Assembly: GCA_045543495.1 (NCBI GenBank)
Contig: JAZQMO010000010.1
Coordinates: 2,240 to 66,239, forward strand
Direction: 5' to 3'
Length of the DNA: 64,000 nucleotides
Source of the DNA: Eubacteriales bacterium
GTDB taxonomy: Bacteria > Bacillota > Clostridia > Oscillospirales > SIG627
Shown: positions 11,338 through 36,561 of the stretch, one piece after another
Position numbering within the stretch: the stretch's first letter is position 1
How the letters are laid out: every line of letters begins with the position of its first letter
The notes under the pieces: generated by a model
Told to the model about the DNA's origin: nothing
The model's input: only the letters and a program-made list of their open reading frames with translations
Databases searched by the model: none
Made by a program: the position numbers and the translations under genes

Positions 11338-11353
11338 ACGAGGAGGAGAAACA

Positions 11354-11530: not shown

Positions 11531-11548
11531 GAAAAATAGGAGGAACAT

Positions 11549-11992
11549 ATGAAGCTTCATGAATTAGCTCCCGCAGTGCCTACCAAAAAGGCATGGCGCA
11601 AGGGCAGAGGACCCGGCTCCGGAAACGGTAAGACCGGCGGCCGTGGACACAAGGGCCAGCAGGCTCGTTCCGGCGGCGGTGTTCGCATCGGATTCGAAGG
11701 CGGCCAGATGCCCGCATACAGAAGACTTCCCAAGAGAGGATTCAACAACGCAAGATTCGCTACCGAGTACGCTATCGTAAATCTTTCCGTTCTGGACAAG
11801 TTTTTCGAGGACGGTGCCGTAGTTGATCTGGTTGCTCTCGTGGAAGCAAATTTGATTACGAAGCCGCTCGACGGCCTGAAGGTTCTCGGAAACGGCAATT
11901 TGACCAAAAAGTTGACCGTAAAAGCCCACAAGGTTTCCGATGCCGCCAAGGCAAAGATTGAGGCAGCCGGCGGAACGGTTGAGGTGATCTGA
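11549..11992 (+). CDS. rplO: 50S ribosomal protein L15
   Basis: [27 protein letters not shown]. Confidence 0.99.
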
Positions 11993-11993
11993 A

Positions 11994-13328: not shown

Positions 13329-13334
13329 TCTGCA

Positions 13335-13961: not shown

Positions 13962-14704
13962 TCAAATTAAAGAATTCTCAGCAGCTTGCGGCAATGCAGG
14001 AGGCTTGCAGGCTGACAATCGCTGCTCTTTACCACGGTGCCGAGATCATCGCACCCGGTGTGGAGCTCGGCGAAATCGATCAAAGGATCCGGCAGTACAT
14101 TGAGAAGCACAAGGGCACCCCTTCCTTTCTCGGCTACGCCGGCTTCCCCAAAAGCTCCTGTATCAGCGTCAATGATGTGGTGATCCACGGAATTCCCGGA
14201 CACCGGGTGCTAAAGGACGGAGACATCGTATCCATCGATGTGGGCGCCTACTTAAACGGCTACCACGGCGACTGTGCGAGAACCTTCCCCTGCGGCAAGA
14301 TCTCTCCCGAAGCCGAGCGGCTCATTCGGGTGACCGAAGAAAGTTTTTATGCTGGGCTTTCTGCGATTCATCCTCAGTGCCGTGTGGGCGACATTTCGGC
14401 GGCTGTTCAGAAAACAGCGGAGGAAAATGGTTTTTCCGTTGTCAGAGAATATGTCGGTCACGGGGTGGGAGAAAATCTGCACGAAGCACCCGATGTACCC
14501 AATTTCGGGATGGCCGGAAAAGGACCTCGTCTTTACGCCGGAATGACCTTGGCCATTGAGCCGATGATCAATTACGGCAAAAAAGAGGTACGTCAGCTTT
14601 CCGACGGCTGGACCGTCGTAACCCTTGACGGCTCCCTTTCCGCACATTATGAAAATACCGTCGCCGTCACGGCAGATGGCGCAAAAATCTTAACCGAACT
14701 GTAA
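13958..14704 (+). CDS. map: Methionine aminopeptidase type I
   Basis: SVNDVVIHGIP, GHGVG..LHEAP, EPMI, SAHYENT. Confidence 0.98.
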   Translation: MIKLKNSQQLAAMQEACRLTIAALYHGAEIIAPGVELGEIDQRIRQYIEKHKGTPSFLGYAGFPKSSCISVNDVVIHGIPGHRVLKDGDIVSIDVGAYLNGYHGDCARTFPCGKISPEAERLIRVTEESFYAGLSAIHPQCRVGDISAAVQKTAEENGFSVVREYVGHGVGENLHEAPDVPNFGMAGKGPRLYAGMTLAIEPMINYGKKEVRQLSDGWTVVTLDGSLSAHYENTVAVTADGAKILTEL

Positions 14705-14734
14705 TGAATGCCAAGATCTAAAGGAGTGATTATT

Positions 14735-14950
14735 TTGGCAAAAGACGATGTAATGGAATTTCAGGGTACCGTAATCGAGACCCTTCCAAATGCCACGAGC
14801 AAAGTTAAGCTTCCCAATGATATGGTGATTCTCGCTTACATTTCGGGTAAGATGCAGCAACACTATATCAGAATCATCCCGGGGGATAGAGTGCTGGTTG
14901 AGGTCAGCATTTACGATCCGACCCGCGGAAGAATCATCAGGCGTCTGTAA
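14735..14950 (+). CDS. infA: Translation initiation factor IF-1
   Basis: TTG start after AAGGAG; [27 protein letters not shown]. Confidence 0.95.
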
Positions 14951-15091
<141 letters not shown>

Positions 15092-15111
15092 TTAAGAGGA
15101 GGAAAAACAGT

Positions 15112-15480
15112 ATGGCACGTTTAGCAGGTGTAGACCTTCCCAGAGAGAAGCGCGTCGAAATCGGCCTGACCTACATTTTTGGTATCGGTCTTACATCTTC
15201 CAAGAAGATCCTCGAAAAGACCGGAATCAACCCCGATACCAGAGTCAAGGATCTGACTGACGATGATCTCGCAAAGCTTCGTGAGATCCTCGAAAACGAG
15301 TACACCGTAGAAGGCGATCTCCGCAGAAACATTGCATACGATATCAAGAGAATGAAGGATATCGGTTGCTACCGCGGAATCCGCCACCGCAAGGGTCTTC
15401 CCGTAAGAGGTCAGAGAACCAAGACCAATGCGAGAACCAGAAAAGGTCCCGCAAAGACCATTGCCAATAAGAAGAAGTAA
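15112..15480 (+). CDS. rpsM: 30S ribosomal protein S13
   Basis: [27 protein letters not shown]. Confidence 0.99.
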
Positions 15481-21126: not shown

Positions 21127-21591
21127 TCAGTGGAAGCTTCTTTCTGTTCCGTCATAATCGGTCCAAAGGTACCACCAATGCTCGTCGAGCTTTTCGCCTC
21201 TGATAATGTCATTGCCCATTGTATCTTGTTCCAGATACGACTCGGTTTGACCGCCGAAGGTACCGTCTTCGGTATAAACCAAATCCCAGTACTGACCGCC
21301 GAGCATACCTTGTGCATCAATGGAAAAGACAACAAGGCCATCCCCTTTGTGGCAAATATAAGAATACTCCTTAAATTTTCCTGAAGCATTATTCGCTGAT
21401 TCCAAAGAATCAACAGCGATCTTTTCCATCTCGCCCTGATATTGATCAAGGACTTTTTCGCATTGTTCTTTTGCTGAATGATACGTTTTAGGAAGGAGAG
21501 AACGAATCAAAAACCAAAGACCAATGCTTATGATTGCGAAAACAGCAATAAAGGCAGCGATTGAAATACCGATTTTCTTTTCTTTGCTCAT
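21127..21591 (-). CDS. Hypothetical membrane-anchored protein
   Basis: Start reassigned to MSKEKKIG after GGGAG SD; N-terminal TM anchor; AT-richer than flanks. Confidence 0.7.
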   Translation of the reverse strand: MSKEKKIGISIAAFIAVFAIISIGLWFLIRSLLPKTYHSAKEQCEKVLDQYQGEMEKIAVDSLESANNASGKFKEYSYICHKGDGLVVFSIDAQGMLGGQYWDLVYTEDGTFGGQTESYLEQDTMGNDIIRGEKLDEHWWYLWTDYDGTERSFH

Positions 21592-21705
21592 ATAATCTCC
21601 CTTTCCGCTTGTTATCTTTTTTTCAGTATAGCATAAAGCTATATAAATTGCAACCATTATAAGTTTTCCAAAGCGAAAGAAAGTAGTCTCTTTGCGGATA
21701 CAAAC

Positions 21706-21743
21706 AAAAAGAAAGACACGATGAAAATCGTGTCTTTCTTTTT
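21706..21743 (-). terminator. Terminator directly after tRNA-Thr
   Basis: AAAAAGAAAGACACGAT-GAAA-ATCGTGTCTTTCTTTTT. Confidence 0.85.
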
Positions 21744-21818
21744 GGAGCTAGTGACGTGACTTGAACACGCGACCTGCTGATTACGAATCAGCTGCTCTAC
21801 CAACTGAGCTACACTAGC
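21743..21818 (-). tRNA. tRNA-Thr (anticodon CGU)
   Basis: Minus strand GCTAGTGTAGCTCAGTTGGTAGAGCAGCTGATTCGTAATCAGCAGGTCGCGTGTTCAAGTCACGTCACTAGCTCCA, 76 nt, full cloverleaf with encoded CCA. Confidence 0.97.
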
Positions 21819-22050
21819 ACATATTTAATTTTTGCTTTGCCTATCCCCTTGAAAAAGAGAAAAGCCGTCGCAGCAATCAGCTGCTCTTCCTGTTGCAACA
21901 TCGCCTCTGCCGTCGCCCGCAGGGCTTGGCAATCGCCGTGTTGCTGCCACTCCTTATTGCTCGCTTCATCCGCCCCCGGCGGCGCTCGCAAGCGTCCCCA
22001 ACTGAGCTACACTAGCACATATTTAATTTTTGTTTTGCCTATCCCCTTGA
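21800..22050. repeat. 53-bp direct repeat (21800-21852 and 21998-22050, one mismatch): tRNA 5' end plus its leader
   Basis: CCAACTGAGCTACACTAGCACATATTTAATTTTTG[C/T]TTTGCCTATCCCCTTGA present twice, 198 bp apart. Confidence 0.95.
21875..22016 (-). pseudogene. Truncated tRNA-Thr 5' half with ~108-nt insertion in the D-loop
   Basis: Minus strand: GCTAGTGTAGCTCAGTTGG-[insert]-GAAGAGCAGCTGATT; homology stops at the anticodon. Confidence 0.8.
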
Positions 22051-22103
22051 GAAACGGATCGGCGGTGGCGTTGGAGAAGCTTTGCACTCCAAGGACACCG
22101 CCG

Positions 22104-22132
22104 ATTATACCACAAAGAAAAGAAAAAATCAA
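22104..22132 (-). promoter_or_regulatory. SigA promoter of the tRNA-Thr transcript
   Basis: Minus strand TTGATT-17bp-TATAAT with TG extension. Confidence 0.75.
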
Positions 22133-22136
22133 GTGT

Positions 22137-22577
22137 TCAGAAATCTTTTTTCATTTGTTTATAGGCAAAGAATGTAAAGCCGAGCTTTTTGTATAGACGA
22201 ACAGCCCCTTCATTCTCATCCTCCACCTCCAAACGGAAGCGCTTGGCGCTATCTTTGTATTCCGTTTCCAAGAAGGCAAAGAATTCACTTCCCAGACCAA
22301 GGCCTCTTTTTTCGGGCAAAAGATAGATCTCCTCGATCCAAACAGCCTTCCCCCCCGCCTCCTGAGACCAGGTCTCGGCCAAAAGGGCGTATCCGCATTC
22401 CTCGCCGTCCCGCTCCAGAATATATCCCTTGGCATAAGGATTATCGGTCAGGAGCAGATCAAAGGTTTTTTTCAAATTTTCCTCAGGAACGGGGGACAGC
22501 ACGGCATCGCTTTCATAAAAGGCTTTTGCCATACTCAAATACAGATCGTGATCTTCTTTTCGGATGCTGCGGATCAT
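22137..22577 (-). CDS. GNAT family N-acetyltransferase
   Basis: WIEEIYLLPEKRGLGLGS acetyl-CoA motif, NEGAVRLYKKLGF. Confidence 0.9.
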   Translation of the reverse strand: MIRSIRKEDHDLYLSMAKAFYESDAVLSPVPEENLKKTFDLLLTDNPYAKGYILERDGEECGYALLAETWSQEAGGKAVWIEEIYLLPEKRGLGLGSEFFAFLETEYKDSAKRFRLEVEDENEGAVRLYKKLGFTFFAYKQMKKDF

Positions 22578-22679
22578 ATTTTACCTCGGTGATTTTTTCT
22601 ACATTATAAAAAAAAGCCACTTAAAAGTCAATGAAGATAATGTTTTTTTGTAAAAAATCGTTCTTTTTTTCATAATGGG

Positions 22680-22708
22680 TTGAAAAGGAGAAACGAAAGT
22701 GCTAAAAT
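22680..22708 (+). promoter_or_regulatory. SigA-like promoter for paralogs 1-2
   Basis: TTGAAA-17bp-TAAAAT. Confidence 0.55.
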
Positions 22709-22738
22709 GAAAAAAATGCTCAAATTTGGAGGATTACA

Positions 22739-24067
22739 ATGAGTGTTCAATTGAAAGCCGGATACGGCAAAGTCGACATTACTCCCTCTTTTTCCGTTCC
22801 TCTGCGTGGCTACGGAAATACCCATAAGAGAATGCATACCAATGTGTTGGATCCTATTTATGCCATCTGCGTTGCCATTAACGACGGAGAAAAGACCCTT
22901 CTTCTCTATCATTTGGATCTGACCGGCTTCCCCGATGATTTGGTGGAGATCTGCCGAGATGAGCTTTTGAAAAAGTACGGTATCGGTGCAGAGTATATTC
23001 TGTTTAATTCTACCCACAACCACTCCGCTCCTGACTTGCAGAGTCCTCTGGATTGCATCAAGGAGTATAAGCCCATTCTGTGCGAAAACTTGATTCGTGT
23101 GGCAGGGGAGGCTATGGCTGATCTGGCAGATGCTTCCGTTCTCATTGGCTCCGGCAGAGTAAAAAATATGAACTTCGTTCGTCGCTATCTTCTGTCCGAT
23201 GGCTCCTACGGCGGCGATAACTTCGGTGATTTTGTAAATAATACCATCGTAGATCACGAGACCCGTGTGGATGATATGATGCAAGCCATCCGTCTGGTAA
23301 GAGAGGTCAAGAAGGATATTGTTTTGGTCAACTGGCAGGGGCATCCCCACCGTACCGGCGGCACGCTCCGTCCCGATCTTTCCTCCGACCTGATCGAGCA
23401 CTTCCGCAATACCGTGGAGGAAGAGCACGGCGTTCTCTTCTCCTTCTATCAGGGCTGCGGCGGCAACATCAACCACCACTCAAGAATAGAATCCGAGCCC
23501 CGTCTCGATGAGGTAGAGGCAGGAAAGGGACTTGCCGCAGGGCTGACCCCCATTCTCGGCAATATGCGCCCTGTGAAGGTGGATAGGATCCGTGCCACCC
23601 GCTCCATCTTTGAGAGTCCCATCAACCACAGTCTGGATCACAGAGTGGAGGACGCCAAAAAGGTTCAGGAATTCTGGAAGAATTGCAATGTTCACGGTGA
23701 ACCCTCAAGGTTTGCTCAGTCTCTCGGCTTTAACTCCGTGTATCACGCAGGCGCTGTCATCGCCCGTGCCAAGATGCCCGCAACCCATTCCTATAACATC
23801 GGTGCCGTTTCCTTTGGTGATGTGTGCATCGTTTGGGCTCCCAACGAGCTTTACGATACCACGGGTATGTACCTGAAGGCCACCAGCCCCTTTGAAATGA
23901 CCTTTGTTTGCGGCTATACCAACGGCTCGGGCTGCTATATGCCCACCATCAAGGCCTTTGCCCACGGCGGCTACGGATGCGATACCTGCCGCTTCGGCCC
24001 CGGCGTGACCGAAAAAATGACCGAAGCCCTCTTGGAAAAGATTTTGGAGGTTAAGGAATCAAAATGA
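22739..24067 (+). CDS. Neutral/alkaline ceramidase-like metallo-amidohydrolase, paralog 1
   Basis: AGYGKVDITP, THNHSAP, NWQGHPH, QGCGGNIN, PNE, GYTNG..YMPT..AF.HGGY; no signal peptide. Confidence 0.75.
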   Translation: MSVQLKAGYGKVDITPSFSVPLRGYGNTHKRMHTNVLDPIYAICVAINDGEKTLLLYHLDLTGFPDDLVEICRDELLKKYGIGAEYILFNSTHNHSAPDLQSPLDCIKEYKPILCENLIRVAGEAMADLADASVLIGSGRVKNMNFVRRYLLSDGSYGGDNFGDFVNNTIVDHETRVDDMMQAIRLVREVKKDIVLVNWQGHPHRTGGTLRPDLSSDLIEHFRNTVEEEHGVLFSFYQGCGGNINHHSRIESEPRLDEVEAGKGLAAGLTPILGNMRPVKVDRIRATRSIFESPINHSLDHRVEDAKKVQEFWKNCNVHGEPSRFAQSLGFNSVYHAGAVIARAKMPATHSYNIGAVSFGDVCIVWAPNELYDTTGMYLKATSPFEMTFVCGYTNGSGCYMPTIKAFAHGGYGCDTCRFGPGVTEKMTEALLEKILEVKESK

Positions 24068-25389
24068 GTGTTTCGCTTCAGGCGGGCTATGCCAAAATTG
24101 ATATTACCCCCTCCTATCCCGTTCCCTTGGCGGGCTACGGCAATTCACACAAGAGAATTCACCAATCGGTGGACGAGCCTATTTATGCTGTCCTGACCGC
24201 TCTCTCCGACGGAGAAAACACCCTTCTTATTTATAATCTGGATCTGACAGGCTTTATTCAGCCCAATGTGGATGCTTGCCGAGAGGCCATTTTGGCTCGG
24301 TACGGCATTGCACCCGAGTATATTCTCTTCAACGCTTGTCATACCCATGCCGCCCCCGATCAAAGAAGCCCTCTGGACTGTATCAAGACCTATACGGCAG
24401 AGCTTCAGAAGGCCATTGTAGACCTTGTAGAACAGGCCCTTTCGGATCTTGCTCCTTGCTCGATCAGCATCGGAGAGGGAAGAGTGCCGGGCTATAATTT
24501 CGTTCGCCGCTATCTGCTTTCCAATTTTACCTACGGTGGCGATAACTACGGAGATTTTGTTAACAATACCATCCTCGGTCACGAATCCGAGCCTGATGAT
24601 ACCATGCGCCTCGTTCGCTTTGTCAGAGAAGAGAAAAAGGATATCGTTTTGGTCAACTGGCAGGCTCATCCCCACCTGACCGCCGAGAAGGACAAATCCA
24701 TTCTCACCTCTGACGTGGTGGGATATTTCCGCCGCTTTGCCGAGGAGGAAAACGGCATTTGCTGTGCCTTCCTTCAGGGCTGCGCAGGGAATATCAACAC
24801 CCACTCCCGCCTTCCCGAGGAAAACGTTTCGATGGATAGTAGTGTGGTGGGAAAAGCCCTTGCGGCAGGGCTTTCTGCCATTCTTTCGGATATGCGCCCT
24901 GTAAAATCGGGGCCGATTTGCACCGTCCGCCGATTTTTTGAAGCGGAGATCAACCATTTGTGGGACGATCGCATTGACATTGCCCAAAGGGTGGTGGATC
25001 ACTGGAAGGCGAGCACAGACTCCCGAGAGGCAAGACGCTTCGCCAATGAAAACGGCTTCAACTCCGTGTATCACGCAAGCGAGGTGATCTCTCGCTCCCG
25101 CCTTCCCGAAAAAAAGAGCTATAACATCGGCGCCGTTTCCTTCGGTGATGTGTGCTTTGCCTGGATGCCCAACGAGCCCTATGATACCACGGGTCTTTAC
25201 ATCCGCGCCACCAGCCCCTTTGAAATGACCTTTGTTCTGGGCTACACCAACGGGTACGACAGCTATATGCCCACCATCCGTGCCTTTGAGCACGGTGGCT
25301 ACGAGTGCGATACCTGCACCTATCCTCCGGGTACCACCGAGCGCCTCACAAGCGAATTGATCGAGCTTGTGGTGGAAACCAAGAAATAA
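24064..25389 (+). CDS. Neutral ceramidase-like protein, paralog 2
   Basis: CHTHAAP, NWQAHPH, QGCAGNIN, PNE, HGGYE; ATGA overlap with paralog 1. Confidence 0.75.
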   Translation: MSVSLQAGYAKIDITPSYPVPLAGYGNSHKRIHQSVDEPIYAVLTALSDGENTLLIYNLDLTGFIQPNVDACREAILARYGIAPEYILFNACHTHAAPDQRSPLDCIKTYTAELQKAIVDLVEQALSDLAPCSISIGEGRVPGYNFVRRYLLSNFTYGGDNYGDFVNNTILGHESEPDDTMRLVRFVREEKKDIVLVNWQAHPHLTAEKDKSILTSDVVGYFRRFAEEENGICCAFLQGCAGNINTHSRLPEENVSMDSSVVGKALAAGLSAILSDMRPVKSGPICTVRRFFEAEINHLWDDRIDIAQRVVDHWKASTDSREARRFANENGFNSVYHASEVISRSRLPEKKSYNIGAVSFGDVCFAWMPNEPYDTTGLYIRATSPFEMTFVLGYTNGYDSYMPTIRAFEHGGYECDTCTYPPGTTERLTSELIELVVETKK

Positions 25390-25391
25390 AG

Positions 25392-25424
25392 AAAAAGCGG
25401 CTTGAAAAGCCGCTTTTCCTTTTT
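25392..25424 (+). terminator. Terminator after paralog 2
   Basis: AAAAGCGGCTT-GAA-AAGCCGCTTTT plus T tract. Confidence 0.8.
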
Positions 25425-25431
25425 CCCTTTC

Positions 25432-25459
25432 TTGACAAATGAAAAGGGAATAGTATAAT
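25432..25459 (+). promoter_or_regulatory. SigA promoter for paralog 3
   Basis: TTGACA-16bp-TATAAT. Confidence 0.75.
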
Positions 25460-25495
25460 GGAGACAGATGATTATGTTAAAAAAAGGAGAAGCGT

Positions 25496-26824
25496 ATGAG
25501 TATACAGTTAAAAGCAGGCTTTGGAAAGGTGAGCATTACGCCTGAATATTCCGTCCCTCTTTATGGCTACGGAAACAGCCACCTGAGAATGAGCACGAAT
25601 GTTTTGGACCCCATTTACGCCATTTGCGTGGCCCTTACCGATGGAGAAAGTACCATTCTTGTCTATAATTTGGATCTGACCGCCATCGCCGATGACGACA
25701 GCGATTTTTGCCGCAGTGTGATGGAGCAGGAATTCGGGATTCCGAAACAGAATATTCTGTTAAACGCCACCCACAATCACTCCTCCCCCGATCTGTACAG
25801 TCCCTTGGACTGCATTCAGAAGGATTATAAGCCCTTCCTGCGTCAGCAGGTGATTCTGGCTGCTAAAATGGCTCTGGCCGATCTGTCTGAGGCCACGCTT
25901 TTCATTGGCTCGGATCATATTCCCGGCTACAATTTTGTTCGCCGCTACCTTCTGTCCGACGGTACCTACGGCGGCGATAACTTCGGCGATTTTGCGAACA
26001 ATACCATCCTCGGCCACGAGACCGAGGCCGATGCCGAAATGCAGGCCGTCCGTTTGGCAAGAGAAGGCAAGAAGGATATCGTTCTTTGCAACTGGCAGGG
26101 TCATCCCCACCGCACGGGCGGCAGCAGGGCGCCCGATCTTTCTTCTGACCTGATCGAATACATCCGCCGTACCGCTGAGGAAAAGGAGGATGTATTGGTT
26201 GCCGTTTTGCAGGGCTGCGGCGGTAACATCAACCACGATTCCCGCATCAAGGAGGAAATGATCTCCACCTCTCATGTTGAGATCGGTACCGCTCTCGGGG
26301 AGGGGCTGGTTTCCATTCTCGGGAAGATGCGCCCCGCAAAATCGGGGAAGATCTCATCCGTCACCCGCTGCTTCACCGCAAGGATCAACCACGATTGGGA
26401 TCACAAGGTGGAGGATGCTAAGAAGGTTTTGGATCATTGGCCCACCTGTGAAACTCCCAGAGAAGCAAGGCTTTATGCCAACAAGTTTGGCTTCAACTCC
26501 GTGTATCACGCCATGTACGTTATAAGCAGAAGCGAAATGCCCGAGACCGAGTCCTACGAGATCGGCGGCGTTTCCTTCGGGGATGTATGCCTTGTATGGA
26601 CTGCCGATGAGCTTTACGATGTAACGGGAATGTATCTGAAGGCCTCCAGTCCCTTTGAGACCACCTTTGTGATGGGCTATACCAACGGGGAGCGAAGCTA
26701 TATGCCCACCATCAAGGCCTTTGCCCACGGGGGCTACGGCTGTGATATCTGCAATTTCCCCGCCGGAACCACCGAAAAGCTTACGGAAGAAATGCTGGAT
26801 CTGATCGTAGCATTGAAAAAGTAA
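25496..26824 (+). CDS. Neutral ceramidase-like protein, paralog 3
   Basis: THNHSSP, NWQGHPH, QGCGGNIN, ADE, HGGYG. Confidence 0.75.
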   Translation: MSIQLKAGFGKVSITPEYSVPLYGYGNSHLRMSTNVLDPIYAICVALTDGESTILVYNLDLTAIADDDSDFCRSVMEQEFGIPKQNILLNATHNHSSPDLYSPLDCIQKDYKPFLRQQVILAAKMALADLSEATLFIGSDHIPGYNFVRRYLLSDGTYGGDNFGDFANNTILGHETEADAEMQAVRLAREGKKDIVLCNWQGHPHRTGGSRAPDLSSDLIEYIRRTAEEKEDVLVAVLQGCGGNINHDSRIKEEMISTSHVEIGTALGEGLVSILGKMRPAKSGKISSVTRCFTARINHDWDHKVEDAKKVLDHWPTCETPREARLYANKFGFNSVYHAMYVISRSEMPETESYEIGGVSFGDVCLVWTADELYDVTGMYLKASSPFETTFVMGYTNGERSYMPTIKAFAHGGYGCDICNFPAGTTEKLTEEMLDLIVALKK

Positions 26825-26834
26825 ATCAAAAGAT

Positions 26835-26862
26835 AAAAAACGGCTTTTTAAGCCGTTTTTTT
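26835..26862 (+). terminator. Terminator after paralog 3
   Basis: AAAAAACGGCTT-TTT-AAGCCGTTTTTTT. Confidence 0.8.
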
Positions 26863-26884
26863 CGTGGAAAAGACCCCCTTTTTC

Positions 26885-26912
26885 TTGACAAAAAGGGGAG
26901 GGGTGGTATAAT
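26885..26912 (+). promoter_or_regulatory. SigA promoter for paralogs 4-5
   Basis: TTGACA-16bp-TATAAT with TG extension. Confidence 0.75.
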
Positions 26913-26951
26913 TGTAGGTGAAAAAGCTTTGTATGAAACAAGGAGATCCGT

Positions 26952-28274
26952 ATGAGCGTACCATTCAAGGCAGGCTATGCCAAAGTCGACATTACCCCTT
27001 CCTATCCCGTGCCTCTGGCAGGCTACGGCAACGAGCAGAATCGCATCCATAACAATGTGCTCGATCCTATCTACGCCATTTGCGTGGCCGTTTCCGATGG
27101 GGAAAAGACCCTTCTTTTCTATCATTTGGATCTGACGGGCTTTTCACAGCCCCTTCACGAGGAGTGCTGCGAAAAGATCCTCAAGCGATACGGGATCCCC
27201 ATGGAAGATATGCTCTTTAACGTGACCCATACCCACTCCGCTCCCGCTCTTGGGTGTCAGCTGGAGTCCATTACCCGCTACAAGAAGGAATTGGTCGAAA
27301 AGCTGGTGGATCTGGCAGAGCCCGCCATTGCCGACCTTTCTCCCGCCACCATAGAGATCGGCTCGGGTCAGGTGTATGGCCTCAATTATGTGCGCCGCTA
27401 TCTTCTCTCTGACGGCTCCTACGGCGGAGACAACTTCGGTGATTTTAAGAACAATACCATCCTCGGCCACGAGACCGAGGCGGATCATACCATGCAGGTC
27501 ATCCGCTGGGTCAGAGAGGAAAAGAAGGATATCGTGATGGTCAACTGGCAGGGCCATCCTCACCTGACAGGCGGCAGCGTGAGACAGGACCTTTCCTCCG
27601 ACCTGATCTGGCATTTCCGTGATACCGTAGAAAAGGAGCACGGCGTTCTCTTCTCCTTCTATCAGGGCTGCGGCGGTAACATCAACCACCATTCCAGAAT
27701 GGAATCCGAGCCCAGACTTGAGCACGATGAGTCGGGCAGACGCCTTGCCGCAGGGCTCACCCCCATTCTGAAGAATCTTCGCCCCGTAAAGCTTGGAAAG
27801 ATCCGCACCTCTATGAGAACCTTTACCGGCCCCGTGAACCACAGCCTGGATCATCTGGTGGATCAGGCCAAGGTCGTGAAGGAGTTTTTTGAAACACATA
27901 CCCACGCCGAAACGGCAGAATTCGCCCGCTCCAAGGGCTTTAACTCCGTGTATCACGCAAGCGCGGTCATCCGCCGTGCCGAGATGCCCGAGACCTATTC
28001 CTTCCACATCGGCGCCATTTCCTTTGGCGATACCTGTGTGGTTTGGGCTCCCAATGAGCTCTACGATGTAACGGGAATGTACCTGAAGGCCACCAGCCCC
28101 TTTGAAATGACCTTTGTTTGCGGCTATTCCAACGGTATGGGCCACGGCTATATGCCCAACATCAAGGCCTTCGCCCACGGCGGCTACGGCTGCGACACCT
28201 GCCGCTTCGGCCCCGGTGTCACCGAGAAGCTGACGGGCGAAATGCTGGAAGAGATCTTGAAGGTAAAAGAATAA
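26952..28274 (+). CDS. Neutral ceramidase-like protein, paralog 4
   Basis: THTHSAP, NWQGHPH, QGCGGNIN, PNE, HGGYG. Confidence 0.75.
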   Translation: MSVPFKAGYAKVDITPSYPVPLAGYGNEQNRIHNNVLDPIYAICVAVSDGEKTLLFYHLDLTGFSQPLHEECCEKILKRYGIPMEDMLFNVTHTHSAPALGCQLESITRYKKELVEKLVDLAEPAIADLSPATIEIGSGQVYGLNYVRRYLLSDGSYGGDNFGDFKNNTILGHETEADHTMQVIRWVREEKKDIVMVNWQGHPHLTGGSVRQDLSSDLIWHFRDTVEKEHGVLFSFYQGCGGNINHHSRMESEPRLEHDESGRRLAAGLTPILKNLRPVKLGKIRTSMRTFTGPVNHSLDHLVDQAKVVKEFFETHTHAETAEFARSKGFNSVYHASAVIRRAEMPETYSFHIGAISFGDTCVVWAPNELYDVTGMYLKATSPFEMTFVCGYSNGMGHGYMPNIKAFAHGGYGCDTCRFGPGVTEKLTGEMLEEILKVKE

Positions 28275-28284
28275 GGAGAGAGAC

Positions 28285-29610
28285 ATGAGTATTCCATTCA
28301 AAGCAGGCTACGGCAAGGTCGATGTGACCCCTTCTTATCCCGTTCCTATGGCGGGCTACGGTAACATTGAGCAAAGATATCACGACAATGTACTGGATCC
28401 CATCTATGTCATTTGTGTGGCCCTTTCCGACGGAGACAACACCCTTCTTTTCTACCATATGGACTTTACCGCCGTGTGGGACGATCAGGTAGAGGATTAC
28501 AGTCACCGTCTTTGGGAAAAGTATCACATCCCCGCCGAAAATCTTATTTTCAATACCACTCATACCCACTCTGCCCCTGCGGTGCAGGGCAAGATGGACT
28601 GTATGGTGGAGTATAAGAAATTCTTGTCCGACAAGATCCTGGAGGCCGCCGATCAGGCCATTTCCGATCTTGCCCCCGCCTCTCTTTCCATTGGCTCGGG
28701 TCAGGTGTACGGGGTGAATTTCGTGCGCCGCTACCTTCTGTCCGACGGCTCCTACGGCGGCGATAACTTCGGCGATTTTGAAAACAATACCATCCTCGGC
28801 CACGAGACCGAGGCAGACCATACCATGCAGGTCATTCGTCTTACCAGAGAGGAAAAGAAGGATATCGTTCTGGTGAACTGGCAGGGCCATCCCCACCGCA
28901 CGGGCGGCGCCAGAAGATACGATCTTTCCTCTGACTTGATCGAATATTTCCGTAACAAGGTGGAGAAGGAGCACGGCGTTCTCTTCTCCTTCTATCAGGG
29001 CTGCGGCGGCAACATCAATCATCACTCCCGTATAGAGTCGGAGCGGATCTGGTTGACCCATCAGGAGGTGGGCGAAAAGCTTGCCGAGGGGATCACCCCC
29101 ATTCTCGGTAATATGCGCCCCGTGAAGGTGGATAAGATCCGTGCTACCGTGAAGACCTTTACAGGCCCCGTAAACCACGACTTGGATTACAGATTGGAGG
29201 ATGCTGAGAAGGTCGCAAAACTTTGGAAGGAAAGCACGGTTCCGGGAGAAGCAAAGCAGCTTGCTTTGGAGCTTGGCTTTCATTCCGTGTACCACGCCAA
29301 CGCCATTATCAAGCGTAGCAAAATGCCCGCCACCCATTCCTATCGCATCGGTGCCATTTCCTTTGGAGATGTGTGCTTTGTCTGGACTCCCAATGAGCTT
29401 TACGATGTAACGGGAATGTACCTGAAGGCCACAAGCCCCTTTGAAATGACCTTCGTTTTGGGCTACACCAACGGCTCCCACGGCTATATGCCCACCATCA
29501 AGGCCTTTGCCCACGGCGGCTACGGCTGCGACACCTGCCGCTTCGGCCCGGGCGTAACGGAGCAGCTCACAGGTGAGCTTGTAGACCTTTTGGCAGAAAT
29601 GAAACAGTAA
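28285..29610 (+). CDS. Neutral ceramidase-like protein, paralog 5
   Basis: THTHSAP, NWQGHPH, QGCGGNIN, PNE, HGGYG. Confidence 0.75.
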   Translation: MSIPFKAGYGKVDVTPSYPVPMAGYGNIEQRYHDNVLDPIYVICVALSDGDNTLLFYHMDFTAVWDDQVEDYSHRLWEKYHIPAENLIFNTTHTHSAPAVQGKMDCMVEYKKFLSDKILEAADQAISDLAPASLSIGSGQVYGVNFVRRYLLSDGSYGGDNFGDFENNTILGHETEADHTMQVIRLTREEKKDIVLVNWQGHPHRTGGARRYDLSSDLIEYFRNKVEKEHGVLFSFYQGCGGNINHHSRIESERIWLTHQEVGEKLAEGITPILGNMRPVKVDKIRATVKTFTGPVNHDLDYRLEDAEKVAKLWKESTVPGEAKQLALELGFHSVYHANAIIKRSKMPATHSYRIGAISFGDVCFVWTPNELYDVTGMYLKATSPFEMTFVLGYTNGSHGYMPTIKAFAHGGYGCDTCRFGPGVTEQLTGELVDLLAEMKQ

Positions 29611-29612
29611 AG

Positions 29613-29640
29613 AAAAAAGCGGCCGATGAGGCCGTTTTTT
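29613..29640 (+). terminator. Terminator after paralog 5
   Basis: AAAAAAGCGGCC-GATGA-GGCCGTTTTTT. Confidence 0.8.
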
Positions 29641-29651
29641 CTTTTGCTTTC

Positions 29652-29680
29652 TTGACGGAAAAAAACCAAAGGGGTATAAT
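29652..29680 (+). promoter_or_regulatory. SigA promoter for ylmH-GNAT-copA
   Basis: TTGACG-17bp-TATAAT. Confidence 0.75.
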
Positions 29681-29709
29681 ATCTTTGTATGATAATAAGG
29701 TGAGGGATT

Positions 29710-30459
29710 ATGACAAAGGAAGAAAAAGAAAGCATCGCCCGTTATGCCAAGCTCTCTCAGAGGGCCTTGGAAAGGGGAATTTATACTGAGACCCCCTTTC
29801 TCACAGAAGGGGAGCAGGCTCTTTTGAAGCAGGAAAAATTGCCCCTTCCGCCCCGCTTTGAAGGGGGATTTTGTGAGGCTCAACGCCGCCTTGCGGTGTT
29901 TGGCTCGGCAGAGGAATTCGGCTGGGAATGGGAAAGCCCCATTGTGATTTTGAAAATAGAGCCGAAAAGCAGAAAATTTGCCGAGAAGCTGACCCATCGG
30001 GATTATTTGGGGGCAATTTTAAATCTTGGCATCAAGCGGGAAATGCTGGGAGATCTCGTTTTGTCCGAGGGGGACGCCTATCTCTTTTTGCTCTCTAAAA
30101 TTTTCCCGTATTTGGTGGAGAATCTGACCCGTGTCCGTCATACGGATGTGCTCTTATCTCCCGTAGCCTGTCTCCCCGAGGGCGTGGGGATCGAGCTCTT
30201 GGAAAAAATCGTCATTGCCGCCTCCCCCAGAGTCGATGCTCTGGTGGCCGCCGTATTTGACCTGTCCCGCTCTGAGGGAAGGGAATTGGTGGAAAAGGAG
30301 AGGGTCAGCCTTTCGGGGCTTCCCGTTACCGATCCCGCCAAGGAGATTCTCGAGGGAGAGAAAATTTCGGTTCGGGGCTACGGCAAGTTCATTTTTGAAG
30401 GCGCCGTAGGTGAGACCCGAAGCGGAAGGCAGAGAATGAAAATACAGCTTTTTGTATAA
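29710..30459 (+). CDS. ylmH: YlmH/Sll1252-family S4-domain RNA-binding protein
   Basis: LTHRDYLGAILNLGIKREMLGD, RVDALVA..F.LSR, ISVRGYGK. Confidence 0.88.
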   Translation: MTKEEKESIARYAKLSQRALERGIYTETPFLTEGEQALLKQEKLPLPPRFEGGFCEAQRRLAVFGSAEEFGWEWESPIVILKIEPKSRKFAEKLTHRDYLGAILNLGIKREMLGDLVLSEGDAYLFLLSKIFPYLVENLTRVRHTDVLLSPVACLPEGVGIELLEKIVIAASPRVDALVAAVFDLSRSEGRELVEKERVSLSGLPVTDPAKEILEGEKISVRGYGKFIFEGAVGETRSGRQRMKIQLFV

Positions 30460-30469
30460 AGGAGAAAAA

Positions 30470-30937
30470 ATGGAAATCAGAAAAGCCAAGGAATGTGATC
30501 TGGAAGGCATCGGAAGCCTTCTTTCTCAGGTCCTTGAGGTGCACCATAAGGGAAGACCCGACCTGTTTTACAGCGGTGTGAAAAAATATACCGATAAGGA
30601 GGTCTTACAGATCCTCGCCGATCCTGCCCGCCCCGTCTTTGTGGCGGTGGAGGAGGGGAAGGTCTTGGGCTATGCCTTCTGTATCTTTCAGCAAATTACC
30701 GACAGCCACGTTCTCACCCCCATTAAAACCCTGTATTTGGATGACCTTTGTGTGGATGAGAGCACCCGTGGTAAGGGCGTGGGCAAAAAGCTTTATGAAG
30801 CGGTCTGCGATTTTGCCCGAGCCGAGGGCTGCTACAACCTGACCCTGAATGTATGGAATTTCCCCAATAGTGCCGTTTCCTTCTATGAAAAATTGGGAAT
30901 GAAGGTGCAGAAGCTCGGAATGGAGACCATTTTGTGA
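30470..30937 (+). CDS. GNAT family N-acetyltransferase
   Basis: LYLDDLCVDESTRGKGVG, FYEKLGM; start reassigned to ATG 30470 after AAGGAG. Confidence 0.9.
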   Translation: MEIRKAKECDLEGIGSLLSQVLEVHHKGRPDLFYSGVKKYTDKEVLQILADPARPVFVAVEEGKVLGYAFCIFQQITDSHVLTPIKTLYLDDLCVDESTRGKGVGKKLYEAVCDFARAEGCYNLTLNVWNFPNSAVSFYEKLGMKVQKLGMETIL

Positions 30938-30951
30938 TAAAAGGAGAAAGA

Positions 30952-33387
30952 ATGGAAGAATTTATCATAACGGGAATGAGCTGCGCCGCTTGCAGTGCTC
31001 GTGTGGAGGGAGCCGTCAAAAAGGTGGCGGGGGTGACATCTTGCGCCGTCAGCCTTCTGACCAATTCCATGACCGTGGAGGGCACCTTTTCCTCTGCCGA
31101 TGTGATCTCGGCCGTGGAGAAGGCGGGCTACGGCATCGGCAAAAAGGGGGAGGAGGCCAAAAAAGAAAGATCCGAGGAGAAGCAGGATCGCAGTCTTTTT
31201 TCTCTTGTGATCTCTGCTCTTCTTCTGTTGGCCTTGATGTATGTTTCCATGGGGCATATGCTCTCCCTCCCGCTCCCCGCCTTTTTCACCCCACTCTTGC
31301 AGGGGCTTTATCAGTTTCTTTTGAGCCTTGTGATCCTTGTTTTGCACCGAAAGTATTTTATCAACGGAGCCCGCGGTCTTGTGCGGGGCGGTGCCAATAT
31401 GGATACCTTGGTGTCCTTGGGCTCGGGCATTTCCTTCCTGTACAGCACCTATCTTTTGGGACGGATGCTTCTTTCCCCCGAGGAGGCAAAGGAGATTCTT
31501 CATTCCCTCTATTTTGAATCCGCCGCCATGATTTTGGTGCTCATTACCGTGGGCAAAAAGCTGGAGGCCTATTCCAAGGGAAAAACCACCTCCGCCATTC
31601 GCTCCCTCCAAAGACTTTCTCCCGATACCGCCCGTGTTTTGGTGGAAGGGGCGGAAGTGGAAAAGCGGGTGGATAAGCTCCAAAAGGGCGATCTTGTTGC
31701 CATTCGCCCCGGTGAAAACTTCCCTGTGGACGGTGTGATCCTGGAAGGGGAAGGCGCAGTAGATGAATCCGCCCTGACGGGAGAGAGCCTCCCTGTGGAT
31801 AAAAAAACAGGGGATTCGGTGTATACAGGCACCTCAAACCTTTCGGGGTATCTTGTTTGCCGTGCCGAAAAGGTGGGAGGAGAAACCACTCTGGCCCGTA
31901 TGATCGATCGGGTCATTGCCTCGGGTGCCTCCAAGGCTCCCATTGCCCGCCTTGCCGATCGGGTCTCGGCGGTCTTTGTCCCCGTGATCCTGATCCTGTC
32001 TCTTATCACTCTTTCCGTCCACCTTCTTTTGGGGGCTGAATTTGCCAAGGCCTTGGAGCACGCCATTGCCGTTCTTGTGGTCAGCTGTCCCTGCGCCTTG
32101 GGCCTTGCCACCCCCGTTGCCATTATGGTGGGAAGCGGTGTGGCCGCCCGTCACGGCGTTCTGTTCAAAACGGCAGAAAGTCTGGAAAAGGCAGGAAAAA
32201 CCAAGATCGCCGTGCTGGATAAAACAGGCACCGTCACCGAGGGAAAGCCCTCTGTTTCCGATGTCTACTGCCCCCCCGAGGTCGACCGCAGAGAATTTTT
32301 GTCTCTTGCCGTCTCCTTGGAGGAAAAAAGCGCCCATCCCTTGGCCGAGGCCATTGTCTCTTACGGAAAGAATGAAGGGATCGAGTCCCTTGCCGTGTCG
32401 GAATTCTCCTCCCGCACAGGCTTTGGAGTAGAAGGGATCGTGCAGGGGGAAAAGGTCATCGGCGGCAAAAAGGAAATGCTGTCAGCCCCTCTGTCGGATC
32501 AGGCCCTTGGCCGTGCCGAGGAATATGCCCGAGAGGGAAAAACCCCCGTGTTCTTTGAAAAGGGAGGCACATTTTTGGGGATCCTTGCCCTGTCCGATGC
32601 CATTAAGGCCGATTCCGCCAAGGCCATCGCAGAGCTTCATAAAATGGGGATCCGCACCGTAATGATCACGGGTGACCGCCAAAGAACCGCCGAAGCCATT
32701 GCCAAAAAGGCGGGGATCGATACGGTCTATGCCGAGGTTCTCCCCGAGGGCAAGGAGGAATTGGTGCGAAAGCTCTCGACGGAGGGCGCCACTATGATGG
32801 TGGGGGACGGCATCAACGATGCCCCCGCTCTCGCCGCCGCCGAGCTTGGCGTTGCCATCGGAGGAGGAATGGATGTGGCCATGGATGCCTCCGAGGTGGT
32901 TTTGATGCAGAGCCGTCTCACCTCGCTTCCTTTCCTTGTGGGGCTGTCCCGCAAGACCTTAAAGAATATTAAAGAAAACCTGTTTTGGGCCTTTTGCTAC
33001 AATTTGGTGGGAATTCCCCTTGCGGCAGGTGTGCTTGAGCCTCTTTTCGGCTGGAGCCTGACCCCCATGTTCGGTGCCGCCGCCATGAGCGTTTCCAGCT
33101 TCCTTGTGGTGTCCAACGCCCTGCGCCTGAACCTTTACGGAGAAAAGAAAGAAAAACAAAGAAAAATAAAAAAGGAGAATAAAACGATGGAAACAGTTTT
33201 AAAGATCGAAGGGATGATGTGCCCCCACTGCGAGGCTCACGTAAAAAAAGCGCTGGAGGCGCTGGAGGGAGTCCAAGAGGCCATTCCAAGCCACGAGAAG
33301 AACGAGGCCCGTGTGATCCTGTCCTCTCCCGTTCCTTATGAAGTCTTAAAGGAGACCGTGGAAAAAGAGGGCTATAAGGTTCTGTAA
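30952..33387 (+). CDS. copA: Cu(I)-translocating P1B-type ATPase with N- and C-terminal HMA domains
   Basis: GMSCAAC, TGES, CPCALGLATP, DKTGT, HP, GDGINDAP, YN and MSVSS TM motifs, C-terminal GMMCPHC; ATG 30952 after AAGGAG. Confidence 0.93.
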   Translation: MEEFIITGMSCAACSARVEGAVKKVAGVTSCAVSLLTNSMTVEGTFSSADVISAVEKAGYGIGKKGEEAKKERSEEKQDRSLFSLVISALLLLALMYVSMGHMLSLPLPAFFTPLLQGLYQFLLSLVILVLHRKYFINGARGLVRGGANMDTLVSLGSGISFLYSTYLLGRMLLSPEEAKEILHSLYFESAAMILVLITVGKKLEAYSKGKTTSAIRSLQRLSPDTARVLVEGAEVEKRVDKLQKGDLVAIRPGENFPVDGVILEGEGAVDESALTGESLPVDKKTGDSVYTGTSNLSGYLVCRAEKVGGETTLARMIDRVIASGASKAPIARLADRVSAVFVPVILILSLITLSVHLLLGAEFAKALEHAIAVLVVSCPCALGLATPVAIMVGSGVAARHGVLFKTAESLEKAGKTKIAVLDKTGTVTEGKPSVSDVYCPPEVDRREFLSLAVSLEEKSAHPLAEAIVSYGKNEGIESLAVSEFSSRTGFGVEGIVQGEKVIGGKKEMLSAPLSDQALGRAEEYAREGKTPVFFEKGGTFLGILALSDAIKADSAKAIAELHKMGIRTVMITGDRQRTAEAIAKKAGIDTVYAEVLPEGKEELVRKLSTEGATMMVGDGINDAPALAAAELGVAIGGGMDVAMDASEVVLMQSRLTSLPFLVGLSRKTLKNIKENLFWAFCYNLVGIPLAAGVLEPLFGWSLTPMFGAAAMSVSSFLVVSNALRLNLYGEKKEKQRKIKKENKTMETVLKIEGMMCPHCEAHVKKALEALEGVQEAIPSHEKNEARVILSSPVPYEVLKETVEKEGYKVL
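33187..33387 (+). CDS. Putative internally initiated 66-aa CopZ-like copper chaperone, in frame within copA
   Basis: AAGGAG at 33172-33177, 9-nt spacer, ATG 33187 in an A-rich linker; METVLKIEGMMCPHC... is a complete HMA domain. Confidence 0.5.
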   Translation: METVLKIEGMMCPHCEAHVKKALEALEGVQEAIPSHEKNEARVILSSPVPYEVLKETVEKEGYKVL

Positions 33388-34843: not shown

Positions 34844-35788
34844 TCAGGCAAACAGGAAATGAAACAGCATAAAAATGAGGGGAATGGTCAGGCAGGAGAG
34901 AAGGTGGGAGATCAGCGCCATTTGCGCCGCCACGGTGGGGTCCTTGCCGTAAGCGGAGGGCACCACGATGGTATTGAGCCCCAAGGGCATGGCCAGTGCA
35001 CAAACGCAGCAGAGGGTAATGCCGTAGGGAAGGGAGAGGGGAATGAGAATTCCGATTCCCAAAAGGGGCATCACCACAAGGCGAAGGAAGGAGACCGCAT
35101 AGACCGAGGCATTTTTGAAGGCGGCCAAAAGGTCGATCCCCGCAATGGTAATACCCGTCAGAAGCATGGCCACGGGGGACATACAGCTGCCCAGAGTGGA
35201 AATGGTGGAGGAAACAAAGCCCGGCAGGGGGAGAGAGGTAATGCCCAAAATCATTCCGATGACCATACCGCCGAACATGGGGTTGCAAAGCTTTTTCAGC
35301 CCCTCCAAAGGATGGCCCTTTTCTTCGGTCTCCGGCATCAGAAGGGCGGGAACTCCCCAAACATAAATAATGGCCCAGGAGGGGATCACAAAGACCAGAT
35401 AGTTCATAAAAATATCGGGGAACAGGGCCGCCACCACGGCATTTCCCATAAATCCGAAATTGGAGAAGGAAAGACCGTAGGTGTAGATCTTGCGAATGTA
35501 GTGATCCTTGGAGCAGAATCTTGCCACCAATACGGCAAACAAAACGGAAAGGACGGCCAAAACCGTTCCCGCCAAAAGATACAGCCCCGCCTCCCGAAAG
35601 CTATCGAGGGTAAAGTGGGTCAGGAAGGTGCCCATGGCAAGGGCGGGGATCAAAACGTTGTTTTCCAGCTTGGAAAGCACCGCGGCGCTTTCCTTTGGCA
35701 AAAGCTTGAAGCGAGATAAAACATAGCCGATGGCGATCATCAGGAGCAAAAAGCCCATCTGATTGATGGTGGAGAGAAAAACCGTCAC
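34844..35788 (-). CDS. AEC (auxin efflux carrier/malate permease) family transporter
   Basis: Multi-TM; FSNFGFMG, NP, AMP motifs; GTG start 35788 after AAGGAG overlapping the upstream stop. Confidence 0.85.
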   Translation of the reverse strand: MTVFLSTINQMGFLLLMIAIGYVLSRFKLLPKESAAVLSKLENNVLIPALAMGTFLTHFTLDSFREAGLYLLAGTVLAVLSVLFAVLVARFCSKDHYIRKIYTYGLSFSNFGFMGNAVVAALFPDIFMNYLVFVIPSWAIIYVWGVPALLMPETEEKGHPLEGLKKLCNPMFGGMVIGMILGITSLPLPGFVSSTISTLGSCMSPVAMLLTGITIAGIDLLAAFKNASVYAVSFLRLVVMPLLGIGILIPLSLPYGITLCCVCALAMPLGLNTIVVPSAYGKDPTVAAQMALISHLLSCLTIPLIFMLFHFLFA

Positions 35789-36561
35789 TTTACAAGGCTC
35801 CTTCCTTCCCAATCGGAGGACTTGGGAATTTCCATCAGATCGGCAATGGTGGGAGCCAAATCCAAAAGGCTGATCTCATCGCTTCTTTCCTCACCGCATT
35901 GGAAGGCATTTCCGATGAAGAACATGGGAATGGTCATATCCTCGGGCAGATCGGTTCCGTGGGCACGGTCATGTCCGCCGTGGTCTGCGGTGACGACGAT
36001 GCTGTATTCCTCACCGAATTCCTCCCATACTCTCTTTACCTGATCAATGGCGGTGGAAATGTATCCCAAATAAGCCTCGCTCATCCAGCCGTTGTCGTGG
36101 CCGCCCTTTTCATCGGTCTCCACCAGATACAGGAAGACAAAATCGGGTCTGCACTTGCGGATCCGCTCCAGAGCGCAGTCGGTGAGGGCGCGGTCGGTAT
36201 CATCATCCTGACGGGCGCGAATGAAGGTGGAATAGGCCAGCGTGAGAGGGGCGGAAACATCACGCAGGGGCTCCCAGCCGTAATACATGGCGGAAATACC
36301 GCCTGCCGCCTTGATCTTATCAAACAGGCTTTCCAAGGGATGGGAGAAGGGAATAAACTGGTTTGTGGTAATGCCGTGTCTCTGGGGAGGGACGCTGTGA
36401 AACATAGACATATGACAGGGCAGGGTCTTGGAAGGGAATACGCTCTTTGCTTTCAGGGTGTAGGCTCCAAGCTCCATCAAGGTCTTGGCAAAGGGGTTGC
36501 CGCAGGCCAAAAAGCCGTCGGGCCGCATTGCGTCAATTGAGATCAGAATTGCTTTTTTCAT
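35785..36561 (-). CDS. Alkaline phosphatase superfamily (NPP/phosphodiesterase-like) protein
   Basis: ISIDAMRPD, PSKTLPCH (Thr nucleophile), TDEKGGH, TADHGGH. Confidence 0.85.
   Translation of the reverse strand: MKKAILISIDAMRPDGFLACGNPFAKTLMELGAYTLKAKSVFPSKTLPCHMSMFHSVPPQRHGITTNQFIPFSHPLESLFDKIKAAGGISAMYYGWEPLRDVSAPLTLAYSTFIRARQDDDTDRALTDCALERIRKCRPDFVFLYLVETDEKGGHDNGWMSEAYLGYISTAIDQVKRVWEEFGEEYSIVVTADHGGHDRAHGTDLPEDMTIPMFFIGNAFQCGEERSDEISLLDLAPTIADLMEIPKSSDWEGRSLVK

Follow-up and report, generated by a model that had tools for sequence, protein, structure and literature searches.

The locus described here lies in a stretch of 64,000 nucleotides (nt) from an Eubacteriales bacterium of the Oscillospirales (GenBank assembly GCA_045543495.1, contig JAZQMO010000010.1, positions 2,240 to 66,239 of the forward strand), hereafter called the window. 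It consists of five tandem genes, cer1 to cer5 (genes 1 to 5), whose products are cytoplasmic, single-domain members of the neutral-ceramidase superfamily (Table 1). A preliminary description had presented them as five intact paralogs of 440-442 amino acids (aa), lying in three transcription units, lacking signal peptides and sharing one set of motifs. The five open reading frames (ORFs) were recovered at the same positions on the plus strand, with 0 internal stops in all five. The proteins form a full-length alignment, A1, whose gaps are one or two single residues; pairwise identity is 54-70% over all pairs and 57-69% against gene 1, and in a search of their own genome the proteins retrieve each other at E 1e-164 to 1e-211, far past chance. 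The motifs H-x-H (H93/H95), NWQxHPH, QGCxGNIN, a Glu and YMP...HGGY occur in all five. Both lists of variable strings quoted earlier are likewise present in A1, namely THKRMHT/SHKRIHQ/SHLRMST/EQNRIHN/IEQRYHD after GYGN and RTGGTLR/LTAEKDK/RTGGSRA/LTGGSVR/RTGGARR after HPH (genes 1-5). Residue 1 of the array proteins is already aligned with the start of the ceramidase catalytic domain, and no signal peptide is possible in any of the five because the open frames reach just 3-11 codons upstream of each ATG.

The organization of the array into three units (genes 1-2, gene 3 and genes 4-5) is backed by spacing, hairpins and predicted promoters. The coding regions of genes 1 and 2 share 4 nt, and 10 nt lie between genes 4 and 5. 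In each of the gaps between genes 2 and 3 (106 nt) and between genes 3 and 4 (127 nt), a GC-rich hairpin with its T run comes first and a 12/12 match to the sigma-70 consensus second. The two gap cassettes (25385-25502 and 26820-26958), each composed of a terminator hairpin, -35 and -10 elements and a GGAG ribosome-binding site, are homologous, which indicates that regulatory DNA was duplicated along with the gene unit. An Rfam scan of 21500-30500 returned a tRNA only, and no riboswitch or leader RNA.

Table 1. Array genes, predicted regulatory sites and neighbouring genes, with their positions in the window.
Feature	Position	Strand	Remarks
tRNA	21746-21818	-	array neighbour
Promoter-like site, gene 1	22680-22708	+	TTGAAA-17-TAAAAT, TG extended, 10/12
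Gene 1 (cer1)	22739-24067	+	442 aa; ceramidase-like catalytic domain, without signal peptide
Gene 2 (cer2)	24064-25389	+	441 aa; most divergent copy of the five
Terminator-like hairpin 3' of gene 2	25393-25417	+	
Predicted promoter, gene 3	25432-25459	+	perfect sigma-70 consensus, TTGACA-16-TATAAT
Gene 3 (cer3)	25496-26824	+	442 aa; own transcription unit
Terminator-like hairpin 3' of gene 3	26835-26861	- (as given by the scan)	palindromic; T runs on both flanks
Predicted promoter, genes 4-5	26885-26912	+	perfect sigma-70 consensus, TTGACA-16-TATAAT, TG extended
Gene 4 (cer4)	26952-28274	+	440 aa
Gene 5 (cer5)	28285-29610	+	441 aa; protein used for the AlphaFold model
Terminator-like hairpin 3' of gene 5	29614-29640	+	
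Copper-type P-type ATPase	30934-33387		array neighbour
Mem_trans carrier	34844-35812	-	array neighbour
Two GNAT acetyltransferases			array neighbours
YlmH-like RNA-binding protein			array neighbour

The fold of the array proteins was modelled with AlphaFold2 on the gene 5 protein, using a 37-sequence alignment (A2), and the model reached a mean pLDDT of 94.1 and a pTM of 0.93. In a Foldseek search of the PDB, neutral ceramidases were the only matches at E <= 0.001 (2zws, 1.5e-26; 4wgk, 2.4e-25), with template-modelling scores of 0.72-0.75 normalised to the query. A search of 48,161 chains that was independent of Foldseek gave Z 38.5 to 2zws_A (residues 1-488, 374 aligned, root-mean-square deviation 2.8) and Z 36.2 to 4wgk_B (residues 99-619), the next best chain having Z 7.0. 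The neutral-ceramidase fold that had been proposed from the motifs is supported by these searches. The match covers the catalytic domain only, since the array protein ends at residue 441, aligned with residue 488 of the 630 of the Pseudomonas aeruginosa enzyme (PaCD), and in PaCD's own catalytic domain some 110 residues find no counterpart in the model (374/488 aligned). Identity of the gene 5 protein to the P. aeruginosa and human enzymes is 16-18%. In the five array proteins, a Pfam scan found nothing beyond PF04734 (Ceramidase_alk), the C-terminal Ig-like domain (Ceramidse_alk_C, PF17048) being absent, and an NCBIfam scan gave no usable family.

The active site was placed by profile alignments to PDB sequences, with residues counted along the alignments (human chain index + 98 = published numbering). 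H93 corresponds to H97 of PaCD and H194 of the human enzyme, H95 to H99 and H196, E371 to E411 and E540, Y401 to Y448 and Y579, and Y413 to Y460 and Y591; R148 and H202 correspond to human R257 and H303. All seven residues are invariant in A2 and in 39/39 strong paralogs of the same genome. The zinc ligands of the human enzyme we take to be H194, H303, E540 and Y579. By homology, one Zn2+ would be held by H93, H202, E371 and Y401 of the array proteins and would activate a water molecule, and H95, R148 and Y413 would then aid the water in cleaving an amide (N-acyl) bond. For human neutral ceramidase, a review names His196, Arg257, Tyr579 and Tyr591 as catalytic and describes Ser354 as stabilising Arg257 (PMC6952831). 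Judged from the motif, human Ser354 would be the equivalent of PaCD S250. The array proteins are thus predicted to be active Zn amidohydrolases of the neutral-ceramidase superfamily, which we consider probable, and the likely chemistry in our reading is the cleavage of N-acyl compounds by such predicted enzymes, which need not be ceramidases.

The array is a small part of a much larger family. The assembly of the window (G000; 1,917,400 bases, 69 contigs, 93% complete) was searched with the A1 profile, and 42 ORFs were found, comprising 39 strong paralogs (E < 1e-44) and 3 distant ones. The expanded enzyme panel proposed from the five genes is therefore supported and had been greatly understated; further copies occur in sister genomes. 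The strong paralogs span 61,248 bases, or 3.2% of the assembly, and 34 of them lie outside the window. Besides the five on the contig of the window (C10), there are 12 in tandem on C19 (21586-38424), four on C56 (4090-10088), three each on C69 (14871-19130), C45 (46088-50210) and C43 (4714-16810, including two giants), two each on C68, C66 (30374-33050) and C31 (12050-15077), and one each on C54, C13 and C8. Their median pairwise identity is 33% (range 20-81%), and the family is old and diversified rather than recently amplified. Called by regular expression and inspection by eye, signal- or lipoprotein-type N-termini occur in 19/39 strong paralogs: 17 copies of about 455-541 aa begin with a lipoprotein-type signal (e.g. 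MKR-hydrophobic-C) followed by a Glu/Thr/Lys-rich linker, and the two giants have a signal-like hydrophobic start. The other 20, array five included, are signal-less. In a maximum-likelihood tree of the 42 ORFs (support values not printed), the array forms one clade with the topology ((3,2),(1,(5,4))), sister to the cytoplasmic C13 copy. Only this five-gene clade carries the Cys-rich signature QGC, GDVC, GCDxC. Lipoprotein and cytoplasmic forms are interleaved in the large C19/C56/C68/C66 clade of the same tree, and likewise within the 12-gene array of C19.

The giants of C43 (1,802 and 1,671 aa; L016:4717-10122 and 10169-15181, minus strand) are secreted forms that end in the ceramidase-like domain. 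For the preceding 1,369 and 1,147 residues, Pfam gave no match at E <= 1 bar one chance-level match of 0.31, and a PDB sequence search with this region of the first giant was negative at E <= 0.1.

A count in relatives showed that the family is present in all 19 other genomes of the own genus and, at E <= 1e-20, in 41/51 genomes of the taxonomic family f1 (G000 counted). By group, matches were found in 19/19 genomes of g1 (the own genus, G000 excluded), 12/16 of g2, 0/4 of g3, 3/3 of g4, 2/3 of g5, 2/2 of g6, 0/1 of g7 and 2/2 of g8. Matches per genome do not equal copy numbers: the sister genomes G001, G008 and G016 have at least 35-36 matches each (33 scored of 66, 86 and 77 first-look candidates), and the remaining genomes of the genus have 1-16. 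Order-wide, 21/151 sampled genomes carry a match, and outside f1 the figure is 14/142, with 1-4 matches each. The named relatives are uncultured Oscillospiraceae and "Eubacteriales" metagenome-assembled genomes, Faecousia and Lawsonibacter, one of them from dairy-cattle colon. A run of the profile against 1.84 billion cluster representatives gave 23,298 matches at E <= 0.001, 13,307 at E <= 1e-10 and 3,188 at E <= 1e-30. The look-alikes in a protein atlas are clusters of 429-444 aa with hypothetical or ceramidase-N-terminal-domain labels from Lentisphaerota, Planctomycetota and Chloroflexota.

The age of the five lineages was approached with an ortholog tree of 77 sequences, made up of the five array proteins, the C13 copy as outgroup and 71 hits of P0001-P0073; P0003 and P0018 were left out for their identity with proteins of the window, as were all of P0074-P0120, and support values were not printed. 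Each array gene has its own companions: gene 1 groups with P0008, P0009 and P0013, gene 2 with P0031, gene 3 with P0020, gene 4 with P0010, P0005, P0004, P0006 and P0017, and gene 5 with P0001, P0002, P0012 and P0016. The pairs P0004/P0013, P0006/P0012 and P0020/P0031 have an equal-sized largest contig (43122, 6963 and 2949, respectively), which suggests, but does not prove, that paired orthologs share a contig and that the same arrays exist in other assemblies. A sister clade has independent three-gene arrays (L027-L029; G001, G008 and G016). As far as these sequences tell, the array is old and its five distinct lineages are conserved in related genomes rather than being recent dosage duplicates.

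The physiology of the organism gives some context for a substrate. In G000, no match was found for the ketoacyl synthase PF00109 (FabF/FabB-type; controls 14/14 positive), for FabA/FabZ PF07977 (controls 9/14) or for DegV (FakB), and PlsX and PlsY are present; at 93% completeness, G000 is likely a fatty-acid auxotroph. PF00109 is found in only 4/51 genomes of the family and in 0/4 of g3, which is also 0/4 for ceramidase-like genes. Since the loss of type II fatty-acid synthesis (FASII) is family-wide and also occurs in g3 without ceramidase-like genes, it is a permissive background and not a specific correlate. The array proteins are read as amidohydrolases of small N-acylated compounds that reach the cytoplasm, and not as classical secreted ceramidases, because they are without the Ig-like domain and the secretion signal. 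By our own estimates, N-acyl lipids or their fragments are a possible though doubtful substrate class, N-acyl amino acids or other small amides are somewhat more doubtful, and N-acyl or N-acetyl glycoconjugates are unlikely. In a working model, surface lipoprotein copies would attack extracellular N-acyl substrates, and cytoplasmic copies, the array included, would finish the breakdown of imported fragments. The widest form of this model, which we regard as a long shot, is that in a small-genome gut Oscillospirales lineage without its own fatty-acid synthesis the ceramidase domain has grown into a repertoire of 40 to 80+ amidases, half of them surface lipoproteins and half cytoplasmic, which harvest acyl chains and/or amines from gut N-acyl lipids, with the array as the cytoplasmic end. 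If this were true, the sources would be sphingolipids of Bacteroidota, host and diet, lipid A and lipo-amino acids, and the lineage would follow a previously unrecognised nutritional strategy.

Several points weigh against the reading of the array proteins as active Zn amidohydrolases of this superfamily. At the sequence level, membership in the ceramidase family is marginal. The HMMER check with Ceramidase_alk held for two of the five proteins and failed for three (genes 1-5: 17.2, 32.9, 16.9, 32.0 and 39.9 bits against the PF04734 gathering cut-off of 32.1), and the match covers the first ~200 (positions 1-231) of 509 profile positions. The NCBIfam neutral-ceramidase equivalog NF041649 scored 18.9 in one copy only, against a cut-off of 1200. 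The position aligned to PaCD S250 (motif GDVSPN/GNLS) is N245 in all five and N, V, A, G, S or T among the paralogs. The division into surface and cytoplasmic forms comes from pattern calls and not from a dedicated predictor, and the relay from surface to cytoplasm is pure inference, with no importer, regulator or partner enzyme within the array's own units. The claim that no transporter or regulator is nearby stands in so far as none shares a unit with the array; a P-type ATPase and a Mem_trans carrier do lie in the vicinity. Transcription of the array is weakly supported by assembled contigs of three RNA-library runs from one metatranscriptome study, which are 95-99% alike and cover parts of genes 1, 3, 4 and 5, and which may stem from DNA carry-over or a related strain. 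For gene 2, no contig piece is listed in the three RNA runs and a DNA run covers the gene; contigs drop rare sequences, and no inference is drawn.

One contig of RNA run X7 links 23473 directly to 29020, so that gene 1 passes in register into gene 5 near codon 245 of each, within the conserved QGCGGNINHHSR region, and the 5,546 bases between are missing. Either the assembler fused two paralogs into a chimera, or a strain carries a deletion made by unequal crossover.

Other readings of the same enzymes were weighed against the cleavage of N-acyl lipids and small amides. In the first, they would be deacetylases or deacylases of N-acylated sugars or glycoconjugates and would serve glycan processing, not lipid harvesting. 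This reading draws on relatives and on other arrays. A C-terminal F5/8 type C (galactose-binding-like) domain occurs in 4/16 multi-domain relatives and in 1/12 of a second set, GH28-type or beta-helix genes adjoin the arrays on C69 (three genes, L018:4026-9736) and C31 (one, L019:15227-16537), and the look-alike clusters of about 430-444 aa are commonest in Lentisphaerota and Planctomycetota, with taxon labels taken from few members. On the other side, 9/16 multi-domain relatives have no recognisable extra domain, and F5/8 type C domains fit glycolipid head groups equally well. The longer fused relatives (12 proteins among 7,999 scored candidates) have mixed domains in no clear pattern. No glycan-type genes lie beside the five array genes in the window, and no sugar transporter or kinase adjoins any array. 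We hold a glycan role to be unlikely.

Less probable still is that the proteins are true ceramidases, which would split (dihydro)ceramide from diet, host or sphingolipid-making Bacteroidota into a fatty acid and a sphingoid base. The shared catalytic-domain fold and the same seven active-site residues speak for this, and the absence of PF00109 and PF07977 matches beside retained PlsX and PlsY implies a need for exogenous acyl chains. On the other hand, the array proteins depart in several respects from neutral ceramidase proper (Enzyme Commission number 3.5.1.23): identity is low, the C-terminal domain and the secretion signal are lacking, the NCBIfam equivalog fails and the motif Ser is not kept. 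The pocket may also differ, given the roughly 110 PaCD catalytic-domain residues without counterpart. The FASII argument gives no specific link, as the loss is shared across the family and extends to g3, which is without these genes.

The diversification within the array bears on a further alternative, that the five copies are functionally redundant and serve gene dosage only. The preliminary description had stressed diversified loops next to the motifs, and this claim finds weak support. For the quoted segments, the five-protein alignment shows 3.0 and 2.57 residue states per column, above the overall value of 2.07; yet segments distant in sequence from the motifs equal or exceed them (66-78, 3.23; 114-121, 3.38; 313-323, 2.91), and the catalytic surroundings are more conserved, with 56% of columns invariant within 5 residues of catalytic residues versus 34% of the rest. 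The quoted loops also vary among the orthologs of one paralog, within each orthogroup, and coincide with the lowest-confidence blocks of the gene 5 model (pLDDT 81-84). They behave as fast-evolving surface loops do. A search for specificity-determining positions with at least 80% conservation in each orthogroup and at least three states found 0, a weak test since the orthogroups are small (2-6 sequences). At 75%, with the same small orthogroups, one position (230) had at least three states and 26 had two, most of them setting gene 2 apart. The gene 2 lineage shares S96A, G201A, G208E, G241A, L372P and G414E with its ortholog P0031, beside catalytic residues, and it is the only lineage with fixed changes adjoining them (H95, H202, E371 and Y413). 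For this reason gene 2 is the best candidate for altered specificity.

For a pure dosage effect, it can be said that genes 1, 3, 4 and 5 are nearly identical around all catalytic positions and that only the one position with at least three group-specific states separates the five orthogroups. The proteins are, however, not near-identical, their three units are separately promoted, and the gene 2 lineage has its substitutions next to catalytic residues. Since every one of the five is matched by orthologs of its own in other assemblies, the array duplications are older than the species split. This speaks against mere dosage, which we hold to be very improbable. Finally, a reverse reaction, in which cytoplasmic copies would condense a free fatty acid and an amine into N-acyl compounds without coenzyme A (CoA), a CoA-independent condensation that Inoue et al. 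in 2009 are said to have reported for neutral ceramidases, would suit the cytoplasmic location and the unusual fatty-acid handling implied by the lack of DegV/FakB and FASII matches, but the neighbourhood holds no hint of lipid synthesis, hydrolysis is thermodynamically favoured in water, and we give it hardly any credence.

The cleavage of N-acyl compounds by the array proteins would matter for several reasons. Bacterial gut enzymes that cut amide-linked lipids and N-acyl compounds are poorly known, although sphingolipids, N-acyl amides and bile-acid amides act as signals in the gut. The present case unites an uncharacterised family with a complete catalytic site, more than 13,000 public sequence clusters and 3.2% of one small genome. 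Devoting so much sequence to one family implies that it is central to how the organism lives. Candidate amidases for biochemical screening are readily drawn from the family, whose five cytoplasmic paralogs in the array are soluble single-domain proteins that are easily expressed, and its coincidence with the loss of fatty-acid synthesis yields a concrete, testable hypothesis.

The surroundings of the other copies in G000 are varied. The C13 paralog (452 aa, 38% identical, the closest outside the array) ends an apparent operon (L022:12535-17221, plus strand) with a class-V aminotransferase, an ornithine cyclodeaminase/mu-crystallin family protein and a metallo-beta-lactamase-fold protein, alongside a divergent AraC regulator; this context hints at an amino-acid-derived amide as the substrate of the C13 copy. 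Around the C8 copy lies a cluster of sugar-nucleotide and glycosyltransferase genes. The 12-gene array of C19 is followed closely downstream by genes for a large terminase subunit and a phage gp3-like packaging protein (L014:8687-11966), which may be a prophage remnant. On C31, a protein of 2,146 aa (L019:739-7176, minus strand) combines seven Spy0128-like isopeptide domains with one VWA domain and probably serves as a pilus or adhesin. Around the other arrays most genes are of the housekeeping type, and no transporter or regulator recurs among them. Elsewhere in the window, ribosomal protein L17 (17563-18102, plus strand) has a Lys/Ala/Glu-rich C-terminal tail of about 65 residues, ending in about seven APAE repeats.

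Among known systems, the sphingolipid ceramide N-deacylase (SCDase) of marine bacteria, an amidase that takes the N-acyl chain off glycosphingolipids, is a lead and would be a functional analogue. A lectin-like domain in SCDase would parallel the F5/8 type C fusions of the relatives. Among titles and abstract openings, the literature on SCDase turned up only papers on its use as a reagent, and among the matches listed nothing relevant turned up on short bacterial PF04734 or neutral-ceramidase homologs or on expansion of ceramidase genes in gut Clostridia. Nearer to the array stand short bacterial proteins of 429-444 aa that are annotated, by label only, as [quoted passage not shown] or "hypothetical" and that show the same Pfam signal on 22-85% of members. 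We know of no characterised member among them. Where matches occur elsewhere in the order there are 1-4 per genome, compared with 39 strong copies in G000.

The closest characterised system is neutral ceramidase itself (P. aeruginosa CerN/PaCD, PDB 2zws/2zxc; human ASAH2, 4wgk), which has the catalytic-domain fold in common with the array proteins (template-modelling scores of 0.74-0.75 on the query) and whose seven Zn-binding and catalytic positions all match invariant residues of the array family. In contrast to its 630-690 residues, the array proteins have about 441, being without the Ig-like domain and some 110 residues of catalytic-domain loops. Neutral ceramidase is secreted with a signal and is present in one copy, whereas the array proteins are without a signal peptide, carry Asn in place of the Ser of the GN(L/V)S motif and belong to a family of tens of copies per genome. 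The superfamily fold is therefore known, and what is new is a catalytic-domain-only branch of the neutral ceramidases, part cytoplasmic and part lipoprotein, with tens of copies in one gut lineage.

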